A DNA stretch of 64,000 nt from Alphaproteobacteria bacterium (lineage in GTDB: Bacteria; Pseudomonadota; Alphaproteobacteria; Methylaequorales; Methylaequoraceae), in assembly GCA_019650635.1 (NCBI GenBank), contig BOXE01000006.1, positions 1,176 to 65,175 of the forward strand, given 5' to 3'. The translations under genes and the position numbers were made by a program. Of the stretch, positions 26,940-40,571 are shown in pieces. Below the pieces are notes generated by a model. That model worked only from the letters and a program-made list of their open reading frames with translations. It was not told the DNA's origin and did no database searches. How positions within the stretch are numbered: the stretch's first letter is position 1; each line of letters opens with the position of its first letter.

Positions 26940-29243
26940 ATGAAAAATAGTAATGAAAATATAGTCCAAACCCTGGAGAAGCTTAGAAGAACTGAGCTTC
27001 TACTTCAAATATCAAGAAAAATTGCTGGACTTAAATCTTTAGAGGAGATTCTATGGACACTTATAGAATTCGTTACTAATGAGTTAGATGCAGATAGAGG
27101 AACATTATTTTTAAATGATAACGAAACAAATGAACTTTATTCAAGAGTTGCCAAGGGATTTGACTCGCGAAATAAAATTTTAAATAACGTTGGAATAGCA
27201 GGTGCAATTTTTCAAAACAAGTCTGGGGAAGTCATTCATGACGTTTATGCGACTCCCGTTTTAACAAAGAAGTTGATCAGGAAACAGGTTATAAGACAAA
27301 AAATATGATTTGTTGTCCAGTTAAAACTGTTGACGGACTGACAATAGGCGTTATTCAAGTTTTAAATAAAAAAAAAGGTAGATTTACAAAAGATAATCTT
27401 TTCTTTACAGAGTCAATTGCCACCCAAGCTGCTGTATCAATTCAAAATGCACAAAATACAGAACATTTTGAAAAAAAAAGAGCTAAAGAAATGGAGTTTA
27501 TAAGTATAGTTTCTGATGTAACAGCTGAAATCGATTTAGGAGCTTTACTTCAAAGAGTGATGGAAGAGGCAACACGAATGCTCAATGCTGACAGGGCTAC
27601 ATTATTTTTAAATGATGAAAAAACCAATGAATTATTTTCAAGGGTAGCTATGGGGGAAGGCATTGGTGAAATAAGACTTCCTAACACTGCTGGAATTGCA
27701 GGTTCGGTTTTTACTTCTGGTAAATCAATGAATATTCCTTACGCCTATGCTGATTTAAGATTTAATCCTTCATTTGATAAGCAGACAGGGTATTTTACTC
27801 GTTCGATTTTATGTGTACCTGTTGTGAATAAAGAAGGTAAGGTAATTGGTTGCACACAAGTTTTAAATAAGAGTGGTGGCAAATTTACAGATGAAGATGA
27901 ATCTAGGTTAAAGGCATTTACTCAACAAGTTGCAATTGCTCTTGAAAATGCCAAGCTTTTTGAAGATGTATCTAAATCTAGAAAGTATAATGAAAGTATG
28001 CTTTCTAGTATGTCTAACGGAGTTATAACAATTAACAGTGAAGAAGAAATTGTTACTTGTAACAAATCTGGATTAAAAATACTCCGAACTAAAGATTCAG
28101 ACATAATAAAAAAACAATCCAAAGATTTTTTTTCCGGAAATAAAAAATGGATATATGAGAAAATTAAGAGTGTTGGTGAATCAAAAGAACCAGAAATTAT
28201 TGTTGACGCTGAAATAGAGGTTTTCGATTATGAAACAGAAAAAGAGGAAAAAATATCAGTAAATTTGACAATACTCCCACTAATTAATGAAGATAGTGAC
28301 GGTAGAACGGATCAATCAGATAATTTTCTAGGTACTTTATTAATGTTTGAGGACATTTCTTCAGAAAAAAGAATGAAATCAACAATGTCTAGATATATGG
28401 ACCCTGGAATAGCAGATCAATTATTAGAGGATGGATCTGACATCATGGGTGGGCTAGAAACAACCGCTACTTTGTTGTTTTCTGATTTAAGAAGTTTTAC
28501 TACCATAACAGAGTCGTTGGGTGCTCAGGGTACTGTAAAATTATTGAATGAATATTTTGAAATAATGGTTGAATGCATATCAGAGCAGGGGGGGATGTTA
28601 GACAAATTTATTGGAGATGCAATAATGGCTGCATTTGGTCTTCCTATATCACATGAGGATGATGAAGATAGGGGTGTTAAAGCTGGTATCAATATGATCA
28701 AAAGATTATGGGAGTGGAACGAGCAAAGAGAAAAAGATGGAAAAGCCACCTGTTGATATGGGATTAGGATTAAATACGGACAAAATTGTGGCAGGAAATA
28801 TTGGATCACAAAAAAGAATGGATTACACGATGATTGGTGACGGTGTGAATTTAGCAGCACGTTTAGAAAGTGCATGCAAACAATATAGTGCAAGAATATT
28901 AATCAGTGACTATACATTTAAAAAACTAAAAGGTACTTATCGCATTAGGTATATAGATGATGTAGTTGTTAAAGGAAAAAACGAACCTATTGGTGTTCAT
29001 GAAGTTTTAGATTATCACAATGATAAAACTTTTCCGAATTTAATGGATGTGGTCAATCATTTTAATGAAGGTAGGAAACACTATAAAGGTGGAAGTTTTG
29101 AACAAGCTATTTCATCTTTTAATGAATGTCTAAAAGCAAATTCTCAAGATAACTTATCAAAAACATACATTGAGAGATGCAATTTATTAATAGATGAAAA
29201 ACCGACAGATTGGAATGGAGTTTGGGTAATGAAAAGCAAATGA
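26940..29243 (+). CDS. GAF-GAF-PAS class III adenylate cyclase with a TPR-like tail (CyaB1-like architecture). Two single-base frameshifts are present as assembled, near 27250-27300 and near 28740.
   Basis: GAF-A reads ...DADRGTLFLNDNETNELYSRVA...GYKTKNMICCPV...VLNKKKGRFTKDN. GAF-B reads ...NADRATLFLNDEKTNELFSRVA...TGYFTRSILCVPV...VLNKSGGKFTDEDE. A PAS-like segment (MLSSMSNGVITINSEEEIVTCNKSG) follows. The cyclase motifs are LLFSDLRSFTTITE, LDKFIGDAIMAAFG and MDYTMIGDGVNLAARLES. Confidence 0.85.
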
Positions 29244-29962
29244 GGAATTTTCCATTAGACAAAGGTTTGCCAAGTTTAGATTATATAGTTAAAAATTGGC
29301 CTAGAACAAAATGTATTTTAAAAAAATATATTTTGTCAAATCATAAACAACCAGATTTATACTCGATAGCAATAATATGTTTAAAAGAGTTAAAAGTTTT
29401 TAAGTTAAAAGACTATAAATCGATTATTAGAAAATTATCAAAATTGTGTTTAAGAAATACTTGTTTCAATACATATCATGATTCTCATCACTTTAAGTCA
29501 GTTTTGGCAATTTCATGTATATTAGGAAAACAAATAAATTTAAAATATAAAGATAGGCTTTTATTGGTCATAATAGCCCTTACTCACGATATGAATCATC
29601 AGGGAAGGAGAATACTAATGAGTAAGCCCTACTATCAGGAATTAAAGAGTTATGATGGATTAGAAAAAATTTTATTTAAGAAAATCTTTATTTTTAAAGA
29701 ATTGAAGAGGATTAAGAGAATATTTGAGAGTACCTTTTTCCCTGTTAAACCAGAAAATGTAGAAGATGATCTTGAAAAAATAATTTTAGATGCTGATATC
29801 TTATCATCTTTAATGTTTGGTCCTCAGGTTGGAGTGAAACTCGCTGGCAGATTGAAACAAGAAATTAGGTATAATGATGATTCAGAATTACTTTTTTCAA
29901 ATTTTCTTAAACTTTTAGGGGGAAAATGTTTATATCTAGATTATTCAAAAAAATCATGTTAA
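29240..29962 (+). CDS. HD-superfamily protein resembling class I 3',5'-cyclic-nucleotide phosphodiesterase catalytic cores.
   Basis: The ATG at 29240 overlaps the cyclase stop (ATGA). The motifs are ...YHDSHHFKSVL..., then 37 residues later ...ALTHDMNHQG..., then ...IILDADILSS. Compare the PDE patterns YHN..HA.DV, HD..H.G and the metal Asp. Confidence 0.5.
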   Translation: MRNFPLDKGLPSLDYIVKNWPRTKCILKKYILSNHKQPDLYSIAIICLKELKVFKLKDYKSIIRKLSKLCLRNTCFNTYHDSHHFKSVLAISCILGKQINLKYKDRLLLVIIALTHDMNHQGRRILMSKPYYQELKSYDGLEKILFKKIFIFKELKRIKRIFESTFFPVKPENVEDDLEKIILDADILSSLMFGPQVGVKLAGRLKQEIRYNDDSELLFSNFLKLLGGKCLYLDYSKKSC

Positions 29963-30007
29963 TAATAAACTATTATGAAATGTTGTCGTTAAAAGTTATT
30001 CACAGTT

Positions 30008-39295: not shown

Positions 39296-39299
39296 AAAA

Positions 39300-40571
39300 A
39301 TGACAGAGAAATGGGTAAAATGGAATTTATTTAAAAACGATGAAAAACCAAAAAACGTTATTAGTAAAAGACTTAAAGTATCATTAATTCTTTTCTCACT
39401 TATTTTTTTGCTACTAGTGAATTTAAAAATTATTGAGGTATTAAGCTTAGCTGACGGAAAAATAATACCCCAAGGAAGAATAAAGTATGTGCAACATTTA
39501 GAGGGTGGAATAGTTGAAGAAATACTAATTAGTGAAGGTGAAAAAGTTGAAATAAATCAACCTTTGGTTATTTTATCGAAAGAAAAAGCAAGCTCTGAAT
39601 TTGAGGAAATTAATTCAAGACTTAAATCAATTGATTTGTCGATACTAAGAGTTAATTCTGAAATAAATTCTAATAATTCAATAGAAATTCCTGAAAATAA
39701 AAATAATTTATTTGATGAGGAATTAGTAAAATCTGAAAATGAACTTTTTCAAAGTAGAAGAAAAGCAATCAACTCTGAAATAAAGTCTAAGAAAGCAAGT
39801 ATTGATAAAGCTAATAAAAATCTCAAAAATTTAAAAAAAAGATTAAAAATCGTTAAAGAACAAGAAGATATTAGTCAAAAATTGTTAGAAGTTGAAGCAA
39901 CAAATAGGTTAAAGCATTTAGAAATTTTAAGAGAAAGGCAAGAGGTTGAAGGAAGTATCGACGAACAACAATCTATAATTGATTTGAGCAAAAATGACTT
40001 AGAAAAAGTGCAAAACAATTATATAGAAGAATTAAATATCGAGTTGTCACAGTACCGAAAAGAAAAAGAAGAACTTAATAAAAGAATTCAGAAATATTCA
40101 GACAGCTTAAATAGAACTGTTTTAAAAAGCCCTGTATCTGGAACAGTAAAACTTGTATCAGTAAATTCTAAGGGAGCTATAGTCGCTCCTGGTGTAACTG
40201 TTGTTGAAATTGTACCTGAAAATGAAAAACTAATAATTGAGGCAAAATTACCTTTATCAGAAATTGGATACGTAAAAAAAAACCTTGAAGCAAAAATTAG
40301 ACTGAATACACCTGAAGGCTCTAGGTTTAGATCAATAAAAGGGAAAGTTGTTTTTGTAGGTGCTGACAGAATTTCTAGTAAAGATGAAGAGGGTTTTTAT
40401 TTAGTCAAGGTGGAAACCTCTGAAAACTCTTTTGCACGAAAAAACGAGGAATATAAACTTTTGTCTGGTGTTCCAGTTATGGTGGGAATTATAACTGGTA
40501 AAAGAAGTTTTATGGATTATTTCTTAACGCCTTTTATAACCGGTGCTAGCTTTGCATTATCTGAAAGGTAA
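39300..40571 (+). CDS. HlyD-family T1SS membrane fusion protein, locus A.
   Basis: 423-aa ORF starting 4 nt after the ABC gene. It has one N-terminal TM segment, then ...GKIIPQGRIKYVQHLEGGIVEEILISEGEKVEINQPLVIL..., a long coiled coil, and a C-terminal ...LSGVPVMVGIITGKRSFMDYFLTPF. Confidence 0.85.
   Translation: MTEKWVKWNLFKNDEKPKNVISKRLKVSLILFSLIFLLLVNLKIIEVLSLADGKIIPQGRIKYVQHLEGGIVEEILISEGEKVEINQPLVILSKEKASSEFEEINSRLKSIDLSILRVNSEINSNNSIEIPENKNNLFDEELVKSENELFQSRRKAINSEIKSKKASIDKANKNLKNLKKRLKIVKEQEDISQKLLEVEATNRLKHLEILRERQEVEGSIDEQQSIIDLSKNDLEKVQNNYIEELNIELSQYRKEKEELNKRIQKYSDSLNRTVLKSPVSGTVKLVSVNSKGAIVAPGVTVVEIVPENEKLIIEAKLPLSEIGYVKKNLEAKIRLNTPEGSRFRSIKGKVVFVGADRISSKDEEGFYLVKVETSENSFARKNEEYKLLSGVPVMVGIITGKRSFMDYFLTPFITGASFALSER

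Follow-up and report, generated by a model that had tools for sequence, protein, structure and literature searches.

Type I secretion systems (T1SSs) that display adhesins on the cell surface are best known from the Pseudomonas fluorescens Lap system, which comprises the adhesin LapA, the T1SS LapBCE, the protease LapG and the cyclic di-GMP (c-di-GMP) receptor LapD. LapG cleaves its substrate at a di-alanine with the pattern T/P/A-AA-G/V, and Lap adhesin systems are the textbook case of post-translational control of secretion and retention by c-di-GMP. Receptors other than LapD are already known: in Desulfovibrio, a degenerate HD-GYP receptor, DvhD, serves a Lap-like system (PMC10990149). In Shewanella putrefaciens, the cyclic AMP (cAMP)-CRP complex binds the LapD homolog BpfD and controls the adhesin BpfA (PMC8938473). 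In cyanobacteria, the NHLP/N11P bacteriocin clusters encode CAP_ED-C39-ABC transporters, HlyD and SurA, according to PMC4558948 (citing Wang et al. 2011). Here, we describe a gene cluster in a 64,000-nucleotide (nt) stretch of an alphaproteobacterial genome (assembly GCA_019650635.1, contig BOXE01000006.1, positions 1,176 to 65,175), hereafter the window, to which all coordinates refer unless a homologous locus (numbered with the prefix L) is named. Seven plus-strand genes at 26940-40571 (locus A) encode, in order, a class III nucleotidyl cyclase, an HD protein, a TolC-like channel, two FecR/RTX proteins (RTX1 and RTX2), an ABC exporter and a membrane fusion protein (MFP). An earlier note on this DNA counted eight genes, but its own list holds seven. 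A second string of T1SS genes (locus B) lies on the minus strand and converges on the MFP gene of locus A. Our proposal is that locus A encodes a Lap-type T1SS coupled to cAMP through both loci, a reading for which we judge the case to be evenly balanced.

In this model, the TolC/LapE-like channel would act with the ABC exporter and the HlyD protein to export two acidic, largely disordered RTX proteins, C-terminus first, and an N-terminal module resembling those of LapA and of the Marinomonas primoryensis adhesin MpIBP would hold them plugged in TolC, hence displayed at the surface. The cyclase would make cAMP with positive feedback through its second GAF domain (GAF-B), and the HD protein would degrade it. 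The cAMP pool would be read post-translationally by the adaptor of locus B, in which a cyclic-nucleotide-binding (CNB) domain is fused to HlyD, and by two free CNB proteins, while locus B would also contribute a second, membrane-bound CHASE2 adenylyl cyclase. Export and display by both T1SSs would then be coupled to cAMP, in the role that c-di-GMP plays through LapD and LapG in the classical Lap system. It is tempting to go further and to speculate that, in an abundant and streamlined marine lineage, cAMP, not c-di-GMP, governs a Lap-like T1SS by means of a self-activating CyaB1-type cyclase, a hitherto unrecognised compact phosphodiesterase (PDE) hard-wired to the operon, a CNB-HlyD adaptor that gates export directly and small CNB proteins that possibly act on locus A, all without a protease; this fuller version is offered tentatively, and we are inclined to doubt it. 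The strongest support for cAMP control comes from the convergent locus B. Gene identities, domain architecture, catalytic and ligand-binding motifs, conservation and domain fusions can be observed directly; from these we infer co-transcription, the enzymatic activities, surface retention and whatever influence cAMP may have on locus A.

The cyclase, HD protein and secretion genes of locus A

The genes of locus A are closely packed. The ATG of the HD gene at 29240 overlaps the TGA of the cyclase gene at 29241-29243 (ATGA), and this overlap is retained. The following spacers, measured between open reading frame (ORF) coordinates, are 45 nt from HD to TolC (29962 to 30008), 56 nt from TolC to RTX1 (31348 to 31405), 80 nt from RTX1 to RTX2 (34948 to 35029), 52 nt from RTX2 to the ABC gene (37654 to 37707) and 4 nt from the ABC gene to the MFP gene (39295 to 39300). 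Order, strand, spacers and overlap all agree with those given in the earlier note, and the gene identities proposed there were borne out by searches with Pfam and NCBIfam models, which recovered every domain named: GAF-GAF-PAS-Guanylate_cyc(-TPR), OEP/TolC, FecR with HemolysinCabind (twice), ABC_tran and HlyD.

Many of these frames are broken in the window. The cyclase is split into three ORF pieces, RTX1 into at least four, RTX2 into three and the ABC exporter into two. The reference for the intact genes is L002, the homologous locus of a clean single-cell genome with approximately 95% identical DNA, in which the same genes, together with a coiled-coil gene upstream of the cyclase, are single ORFs of 205 (coiled-coil), 768, 240, 446, 1051, 880 and 529 amino acids (aa). 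Compared with L002, the cyclase gene of the window has single-base deletions at 27152, 27157, 27176 and 27248 and a single-base insertion at 28745, and the ABC gene has one 1-nt deletion at 38549. With four of the seven genes (cyclase, RTX1, RTX2 and ABC) interrupted by indels of this kind, one could suppose that the locus is decaying through genuine pseudogenising frameshifts. However, the indispensable genes gyrA (13521-16156), uvrA (10323-12858), recG (17926-19992) and secDF are split in a like manner by single-base indels across the window, relatives with 95% identical DNA carry intact ORFs, and relatives whose genomes derive from nanopore reads show breaks of the same kind. We therefore reject pseudogenisation, which we consider very improbable. 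Since essential genes are broken alike and the clean single-cell genomes are intact, the frameshifts are sequencing or assembly errors. The whole window is thus an error-prone assembly, and its ORFs have to be interpreted with the help of a clean relative.

Anabaena CyaB1 and CyaB2 are adenylyl cyclases that are activated by cAMP through a GAF domain, and in class III cyclases generally, a Lys paired with Thr/Ser specifies adenine and is characteristic of class IIIb. The cyclase of locus A (26940..29243, plus strand; GAF-GAF-PAS-class III cyclase-TPR) has this type of architecture: two GAF domains, a PAS domain and a Guanylate_cyc domain were identified by Pfam on the ORF pieces and form one polypeptide in L002. 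The best relative of solved structure is the tandem GAF of Anabaena CyaB2 (PDB 1YKD; E 1e-43 to 1e-45). When aligned to CyaB2, GAF-B carries NK...F...DE, the NKFDE motif for binding of cyclic nucleoside monophosphates (cNMPs), in the segment NKSGGKFTDEDE, while GAF-A has NK..F and lacks the DE. In the catalytic domain, the metal-binding aspartates (FSDLRSF and FIGDAIMA) align with those of Pseudomonas aeruginosa CyaB (3R5G), and the specificity residues are Lys (LDKFIGD) and Thr (DYTMIGD), as in that enzyme; the guanylyl cyclase Cya2 of Synechocystis has Glu and Gly at both specificity positions. Because of the Lys/Thr pair, the enzyme is predicted to be a class IIIb adenylyl cyclase with cAMP, not cGMP, as its product, and the motif in GAF-B implies, at the level of sequence, cAMP-stimulated synthesis of cAMP. 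A cGMP system is less likely, as both cyclases of the window carry the adenine-type Lys and Thr/Ser pair. The description of the gene as encoding a cAMP-autoregulated type of cyclase can accordingly be retained in the sense of a CyaB1/CyaB2-type enzyme with the CyaB2 GAF tandem as best relative, whereas the wording "cAMP- or cGMP-gated" has to be narrowed, given that the specificity residues predict cAMP alone.

The gene that overlaps the cyclase stop encodes an HD protein of 240 aa (29240..29962, plus strand) for which both profile and fold comparisons point to the class I PDEs. Among 21 sequences, down to 43% identity, residues H80, H84, H116, D117, H120, G122, E134 and D186 are invariant. 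When a profile of these 21 members was compared with the PDB, the best 60 of 91 matches (E <=10) were all catalytic domains of class I PDEs, with PDE5 best (E 1.6e-4) and PDE2 and PDE9 also matched. The motifs YH(D/N)xxH and HDxxHxG were aligned to PDE5 by HMMER, and the spacing suggests that E134 and D186 are equivalent to the Glu and Asp of the PDE metal site. An AlphaFold2 model (pLDDT 80, pTM 0.82) is all-helical and describes a soluble protein that lacks membrane and periplasmic segments; the top 40 Foldseek matches of this model are all PDE catalytic domains, with probability 1.00. The earlier description of this gene as PDE-like is upheld by both results. The family to which it belongs comprises 132 proteins, all of approximately 240 aa and all from marine samples; they are bacterial and so far come from this lineage only. 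The scores themselves, however, are modest, and they weigh against the enzymatic part of our proposal. The Pfam HD model gives 16.6 bits against a cutoff of 22 (E 0.01), and PDEase_I (PF00233) gives 13 bits against 24.8 (E 0.086) over residues 79-123 only. The structural similarity is moderate (query TM-score approximately 0.5-0.57, E ~1e-2, root-mean-square deviation (rmsd) 5-11 Å), and the protein is approximately 90 residues shorter than the PDE catalytic domain of approximately 330 aa. Judged by sequence and model, it is a predicted compact class-I-PDE-like enzyme and not a demonstrated member of that family.

These scores leave some room for the idea that the HD protein, instead of hydrolysing cAMP, is a phosphohydrolase or nucleotide receptor associated with the T1SS, with another ligand (c-di-GMP, a linear dinucleotide or some other nucleotide), loosely like DvhD, and that its link with the cyclase is secondary. 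In keeping with this idea, the protein falls below both Pfam cutoffs, remains beside TolC where the cyclase is absent, and lacks so many PDE residues that a purine-recognition pocket could not be verified; a PAS-HD_5 protein adjoins LapG in the homologous locus L036, and DvhD shows that a Lap-like system can have an HD-type receptor (PMC10990149). On the other hand, every position that serves class I PDEs as metal ligand or general acid is invariant, which favours catalysis over a degenerate receptor, and the best 60 of the 91 profile matches and the top 40 fold matches are PDEs and not HD-GYP or other HD proteins. Genomes without the cyclase of locus A still hold the cAMP genes of locus B downstream. 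Furthermore, inside-out signalling in the manner of LapD or DvhD would be impossible for the HD protein alone, because it is a soluble protein of 240 aa with no membrane or periplasmic part. We consider a different ligand improbable, and a cAMP-degrading role remains our preferred assignment.

The remaining five genes of locus A encode an export apparatus and its two presumed substrates. The TolC/LapE-like channel (30008..31348, plus strand; 446 aa) matches Pfam OEP (E 1.5e-53) and scores 188 bits with NCBIfam type_I_sec_TolC, under the cutoff of 225; JGI gives a member of the same cluster the name "adhesin transport system outer membrane protein". The ABC exporter (37707..39295, plus strand; Pfam ABC_tran) has type_I_sec_LssB and PrtD as its best NCBIfam matches, both under cutoff. 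The HlyD-family MFP (39300..40571, plus strand) is intact at 423 aa and scores 290.7 bits with type_I_hlyD against a cutoff of 208.65. FecR/RTX protein 1 (31405..34948, plus strand; Pfam FecR and HemolysinCabind) consists of an N-terminal beta domain, a retention/FecR-like domain, a repeat region of approximately 500 aa, RTX repeats and a C-terminal secretion region. FecR/RTX protein 2 (35029..37654, plus strand) is its paralog, with an N-domain 71% identical to that of RTX1. Both proteins are acidic (pI 4.05). RTX2 has seven canonical RTX nonapeptides, and RTX1 has two near its C-terminus (869 and 887) in addition to two pattern matches in Gly-rich repeats. The centre of RTX1 is made of Gly/Pro/Asp/Glu tandem repeats, encoded by DNA repeats of 24 nt (GPGGPGDF; 11.7 copies), 15 nt (FGPAG; 14.5 copies) and a 96-nt unit (two copies) at 32433-34169 of the window and 13300-14700 of L002. 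These repeats raise the local GC content to 0.54 in a genome of 0.29 GC, and the length of RTX1 varies by genome (the gene has 3544 nt here and 3156 nt in L002).

The likeness to Lap adhesins lies in the N-terminal 300 aa of the RTX proteins, which are conserved and were modelled with a pLDDT of 83. The model as a whole resembles the periplasmic domains of FecR/PupR (E ~2e-5), and its first half resembles the cell surface anchoring domain of MpIBP (5IX9; target TM-score 0.78, rmsd 0.9 Å, 29% identity over 62 columns). The NCBIfam model retention_LapA (NF033682) was matched by all 26 of the FecR-domain family members sampled (best E 1.2e-11). Given this resemblance of the FecR domains to the retention modules of LapA and MpIBP, locus A probably encodes, as far as sequence and model indicate, a Lap-like surface-display T1SS with two long calcium-binding substrates. 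The analogy with LapA that had been drawn at the outset thus gains both a profile match and a structural one.

Locus B and the search for cAMP sensors and other regulators

Locus B contains, in order, genes for TolC, a candidate substrate, a C39-like ABC exporter, a CNB-HlyD protein, a CHASE2 cyclase, two CNB proteins, a DUF1538 protein, a PII-like protein and a 99-aa ORF, all on the minus strand. The CNB-HlyD gene (46263..47987) encodes an intact protein of 574 aa in which a cNMP_binding domain (E 1.2e-19) precedes HlyD_3 (E 4e-15); the phosphate-binding-cassette motif of the N-terminal cNMP-binding domain, FGEMALI...RSA, is intact. The adjacent CHASE2-class III cyclase (43896..46266; Pfam CHASE2 and Guanylate_cyc) lies in two ORFs here and in a single one of 789 aa in L031, L032 and L034; its Lys/Ser pair (IDKYMGD and FDYSVLGD) is of the adenylyl cyclase type. 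Two single-domain cNMP-binding proteins follow (42985..43881; E 5e-15 and 4e-13), the second being frameshifted, and are intact as proteins of 146 and 155 aa in L031-L034. On the other side of the fusion gene are the ABC exporter (47994-50165; Pfam Peptidase_C39, ABC_membrane and ABC_tran), a Pro/Gly/Asp/Met-rich candidate substrate known from its frameshifted translation (about 50260-51360) and a frameshifted TolC gene (51699-52803; Pfam OEP). The order of locus B is conserved in relatives, and its convergence on locus A is kept (L031-L034). Gaps from the ABC gene through orf98 are at most about 40 nt in cleaner relatives, and those in the string CNB-CNB-DUF1538-PII-orf98 are 2-42 nt in clean ones (DUF1538-PII-orf98 at 15047-17420 of L031).

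Fusion of a CNB domain with HlyD is no isolated case: the architecture recurs in dozens of clusters that are more than 50% divergent, both domains were present in 10 of 10 sampled, and among the 150 best-matching representatives at 50% clustering, approximately one-third match over the full length. A search of the literature found no functional study of a CNB-HlyD fusion. The suggestion that secretion is linked to cNMPs thus gains support from locus B, which combines a CNB-HlyD adaptor with a second cyclase and two CNB proteins; no T1SS protein of locus A has such a sensor, so that cAMP gating of locus A itself is inferred.

The genes of locus B nearest to locus A (40573..42777) are the 99-aa ORF and those for the PII-like protein (118 aa; Pfam P-II) and the membrane protein with DUF1538. 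The occurrence of a PII-like protein among cAMP genes recalls the cAMP-binding SbtB, and by this analogy the protein could be a further nucleotide sensor that controls a DUF1538 transporter. Beyond locus B, at 55612-57285 on the minus strand, are genes for an HD_4 protein (195 aa) and a protein of the histone-deacetylase family (338 aa); HD_4 and Hist_deacetyl genes also stand at the outer edge of the L031-L033 loci.

The regulators of classical Lap systems were sought in the same DNA. A six-frame motif scan and a Pfam scan of the ORFs found no GGDEF, EAL or HD-GYP domain in the window, where the sole GGDEF string is a chance occurrence inside the low-complexity region of RTX1. When the Peptidase_C93 of L036 was used as query, tblastn detected no LapG, either in the window or at the loci of the lineage, and the motif and Pfam scans of the window found neither a LapD-type receptor nor an analog of DvhD. 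The remark in the earlier note that no GGDEF, EAL or LapD/LapG-like gene is visible thus holds for the window by motif, Pfam and tblastn searches alike. The RTX proteins have conserved Ala-Ala pairs at 226-227 (GKAAVEG) and 283-284 (LSAAQ), neither of which fits the LapG cleavage pattern.

Transcriptional control by cAMP through CRP is likewise unsupported. None of the CNB proteins of the window has a helix-turn-helix (HTH) domain of the CRP type, and CRP-box matches are not enriched (28 against 30.5 expected), with none in the candidate promoter gaps. A search for riboswitches and other RNA elements in 20000-54000 found none besides one tRNA. The lack of CRP, of CRP-box enrichment and of a riboswitch fits post-translational sensing.

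Conservation of the block and the origin of its regulatory genes

The HD gene was found in 23 genome and 2 metagenome loci with readable context. In all 25, it lies directly upstream of TolC, and the order HD-TolC-FecR/RTX (one or two copies)-ABC-MFP is kept as far as the contigs reach. The coiled-coil gene and the cyclase gene lie immediately upstream of HD in 22 of the 25. The block belongs to a lineage of low GC content (approximately 0.29-0.32 in the lineage of the window); in its more divergent genomes, the mfd-surA-rotamase context is replaced, whereas the block persists, with HD identity down to 44%. Two types of locus have no cyclase. Their HD proteins are 51% identical to each other, and in one of them the ABC and MFP proteins are nearer to those of the window than are those of many cyclase-bearing loci. 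From this divergence and this closeness, it follows that the presence of the cyclase is patchy. What is conserved is therefore not the synthesis and degradation pair as a whole: HD always adjoins TolC, but the cyclase is absent from three loci. Similarly, the expectation that the pair would be conserved beside the T1SS genes of relatives is confirmed for the block and for the cyclase in 22 of 25 loci, but within one low-GC lineage only.

Outside this lineage, homologs of the secretion cassette have other neighbours. The FecR N-domain family is broader (743 matches), and neither a CyaB1-like cyclase nor the HD gene was present in the eight homologous TolC-FecR contexts outside the lineage that were read. 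In Magnetovibrio and in a metagenome-assembled genome of the Rhodospirillales, a sensor kinase and a response regulator-GGDEF gene precede TolC-FecR and a giant adhesin. In L036 (65% GC), the order response regulator-TolC-FecR-RTX-ABC-MFP continues with genes for a Peptidase_C93 of the LapG type and a PAS-HD_5 protein (19469-21416), an arrangement that resembles the DvhG/DvhD variant of the Lap system in Desulfovibrio. L035 (45% GC; 1-5281) carries genes for CNB-HlyD, a 713-aa ABC exporter, CRP and a 574-aa protein whose N-terminus resembles the candidate substrate of locus B, all within 8 kb of TolC-FecR, so that the pairing of the two types of T1SS is not confined to the lineage of the window. 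In L027, the adaptor is followed by a protein with a weak cNMP_binding match, and L029, L030 and L037 have nothing relevant beside TolC-FecR. As homologous loci elsewhere lack the cyclase and HD genes, the T1SS cassette appears, on sequence evidence, to be ancestral, and the adjoining second-messenger genes differ by lineage.

This distribution raises the question of whether the cyclase and HD genes are neighbours of the cassette merely by descent. According to such an account, they would form a general cAMP island beside an ancestral cassette, locus A secretion would not be under cAMP control, and the island, along with the DUF1538 and PII-like genes, might instead serve another purpose such as the sensing of carbon or inorganic carbon. 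The TolC-FecR/RTX(-ABC-MFP) cassette does occur without cyclase and HD in at least six other lineages, the cyclase is lacking in 3 of 25 loci, the proteins of locus A have no cNMP sensor, all evidence of linkage comes from one lineage, and short spacers extend over the whole plus-strand run from mfd (20361) and are not specific to the block. Nevertheless, HD stays beside TolC in 25 of 25 loci even though the upstream synteny breaks and no gene of the block evolves faster (HD identity is 44-60% in loci whose cyclase core has 79-95%). Moreover, the adaptor of the island's second T1SS carries a fused cNMP-binding domain, and in an unrelated lineage (L035), a locus of type A again adjoins one of the CNB-HlyD type. 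We regard an association by descent alone as unlikely, while granting it a substantial share of probability.

The proposal that locus A is coupled to cAMP must also be set against a number of other observations, all of which tell against it to some degree. Sensor domains, whether cNMP-binding, GAF or of another kind, are lacking in all T1SS components of locus A. In L023, L038 and L039, there is no cyclase, and DUF192 is followed straight by HD. Cyclase and HD are associated in this way in one low-GC marine lineage only, which amounts to a single evolutionary event, and their association could persist through the general synteny of a streamlined genome. With neither LapG nor LapD found, regulated release is left with no candidate protease. 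The ABC exporter is without the N-terminal C39-like domain of LapB, its LssB/HlyB-type matches starting at model position 132-140. The RTX protein of the window scores 26 bits with retention_LapA against a cutoff of 50, and its retention-like domain begins at residue 105-138 (approximately 100-140 residues in) and not at the N-terminus. Finally, the block contains promoter-like sites, one of which (35009-35037) matches at 11/12 positions.

The block also extends further to the left than had been assumed. The cyclase had been described as its head, but the co-directional run begins before 26940. At 26307..26925, separated from the cyclase by a 14-nt gap, is the plus-strand gene of a coiled-coil repeat protein, frameshifted here and intact in L002 (7066-7683), which is built of repeats of approximately 35 aa (NEIKQLK...LR.ELE..KF.K). 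It co-occurs with the cyclase, and both are absent in L023, L038 and L039; because they are present or absent together, the coiled-coil protein may be a partner of the cyclase. Further upstream on the same strand are a DUF192 gene (25804-26286; Pfam DUF192 E 1.5e-26) and an 84-aa ORF (25569-25823), which form the conserved left edge of the block. Both are found directly upstream in nearly all HD-bearing loci, although in L023 only DUF192 is retained and the 84-aa ORF is not detectable. The 84-aa ORF follows the sole large gap on the plus strand (432 nt, 25137-25568). Before this gap, at 23642-25136 on the plus strand, are a 393-aa ORF and a PpiC-type rotamase (Pfam E 8e-27), which stand upstream of the block only in the closest relatives (L001-L010). 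The 393-aa ORF has no Pfam match, and its label "SurA-like" comes from position alone. SurA and rotamase genes also recur in the CAP_ED-ABC/HlyD bacteriocin clusters of cyanobacteria (PMC4558948), a likeness that may be coincidence.

The region from the cyclase through the MFP gene, or from the 84-aa ORF through the MFP gene, is probably transcribed as one unit, to judge from gene arrangement. The plus-strand genes are short-spaced from mfd (20361) onwards, and since short spacers are typical throughout this compact genome, they are weak evidence of an operon. No terminator-like site lies within the spacers of locus A. Scans for promoters (75 matches against 64.9 +/- 9.6 in shuffles) and for terminators (16 against 11.7 +/- 3.5) were uninformative. 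The promoter-like match at 35009-35037 on the plus strand is the best of the region (TTAACA, 17 nt, TATAAT); it lies in the RTX1-RTX2 spacer, overlaps the GTG start assigned to RTX2 by ORF calling, and may be an internal promoter or AT-rich noise.

Comparison with known systems

The two predicted cAMP enzymes of locus A can each be compared with known ones. The cyclase shares with Anabaena CyaB1 and CyaB2 the domain order, the CyaB2 GAF tandem as best PDB match, the NKFDE motif in GAF-B and the Lys/Thr pair, and it differs in its alphaproteobacterial host, in the overlap with a PDE-like gene and in the T1SS genes behind it. The HD protein has in common with the class I PDEs (PDE5, PDE2, PDE9 and trypanosomatid enzymes) the metal and acid motifs and, to judge from spacing, the invariant later Glu and Asp, and its all-helical model finds its best, if moderate, structural matches among them. 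By contrast, it has 240 aa instead of approximately 330 aa, stays below the Pfam gathering threshold, and is a protein in which the purine-selecting Gln and the hydrophobic clamp were not identified.

If the proposed coupling is real, the second-messenger layer of T1SS control would be interchangeable, with a cyclase, a compact PDE, a CNB-HlyD adaptor and free CNB proteins as its cAMP parts. Streamlined open-ocean bacteria are usually thought to be minimal in signalling and non-adhesive, and the same coupling would mean regulated surface display or secretion in such organisms. Three uncharacterised families would then become testable, namely the 240-aa class-I-like bacterial PDE, the diverse CNB-HlyD fusions and the RTX proteins that combine a retention module and FecR domain with long Gly/Pro/acidic repeats. 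Follow-up is merited by the family of compact PDE-like proteins, by the CNB-HlyD adaptor and by the cAMP island around two T1SSs.

The locus as a whole is most readily compared with the P. fluorescens Lap system and the MpIBP system of M. primoryensis. As in these, a TolC-like channel is encoded together with ABC and HlyD proteins, a second-messenger module is adjacent, and the substrates have C-terminal RTX repeats, to which is added a beta domain in the N-terminal part that resembles, by profile and model, the retention module of LapA and the anchoring domain of MpIBP. In addition, a homolog of locus A in another lineage (L036) adjoins a LapG-type Peptidase_C93. The differences are nonetheless considerable. 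LapG and LapD were found neither in 39 related loci nor in the window (with the L036 Peptidase_C93 as LapG query), and the second-messenger genes of locus A are of the cAMP type and not of the c-di-GMP type. Compared with Lap and MpIBP, the retention-like domain does not open the protein and is followed by a FecR/PupR-like sandwich, and the passenger is a low-complexity Gly/Pro/acidic region of approximately 500 aa instead of Ig-like repeats. Two paralogous substrates of only approximately 0.9-1.05 kaa are encoded, and the C39-like domain is found on the ABC exporter of locus B (Peptidase_C39), not on that of locus A.

The earlier note could not match the locus to a described system, yet cAMP input to a Lap-type system has a precedent in Shewanella (PMC8938473). 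What the two would share is a post-translational action of cAMP on the retention of a Lap-type adhesin, which for locus A is a proposal only. In Shewanella, this action passes through CRP and a LapD homolog and operates alongside c-di-GMP and a LapG homolog (PMC8938473), whereas the locus described here is without CRP, LapD and LapG and encodes its cyclase, PDE-like protein and CNB proteins together with the T1SS genes. The novelty of the arrangement is thus tempered by this cAMP-CRP input and by the CAP_ED-fused ABC exporters already annotated in cyanobacteria (PMC4558948). In those cyanobacterial clusters, CAP_ED is likewise fused to a component of a HlyD/ABC exporter, and free CAP_ED-only proteins are present in some; the sensor, however, is carried by the ABC protein, and the cargo consists of small leader-peptide bacteriocins. 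On the contrary, in the island described here, the sensor is carried by the HlyD adaptor of locus B, the cargo is large and of RTX or low-complexity type, and dedicated cyclases and a PDE-like gene accompany the exporters.

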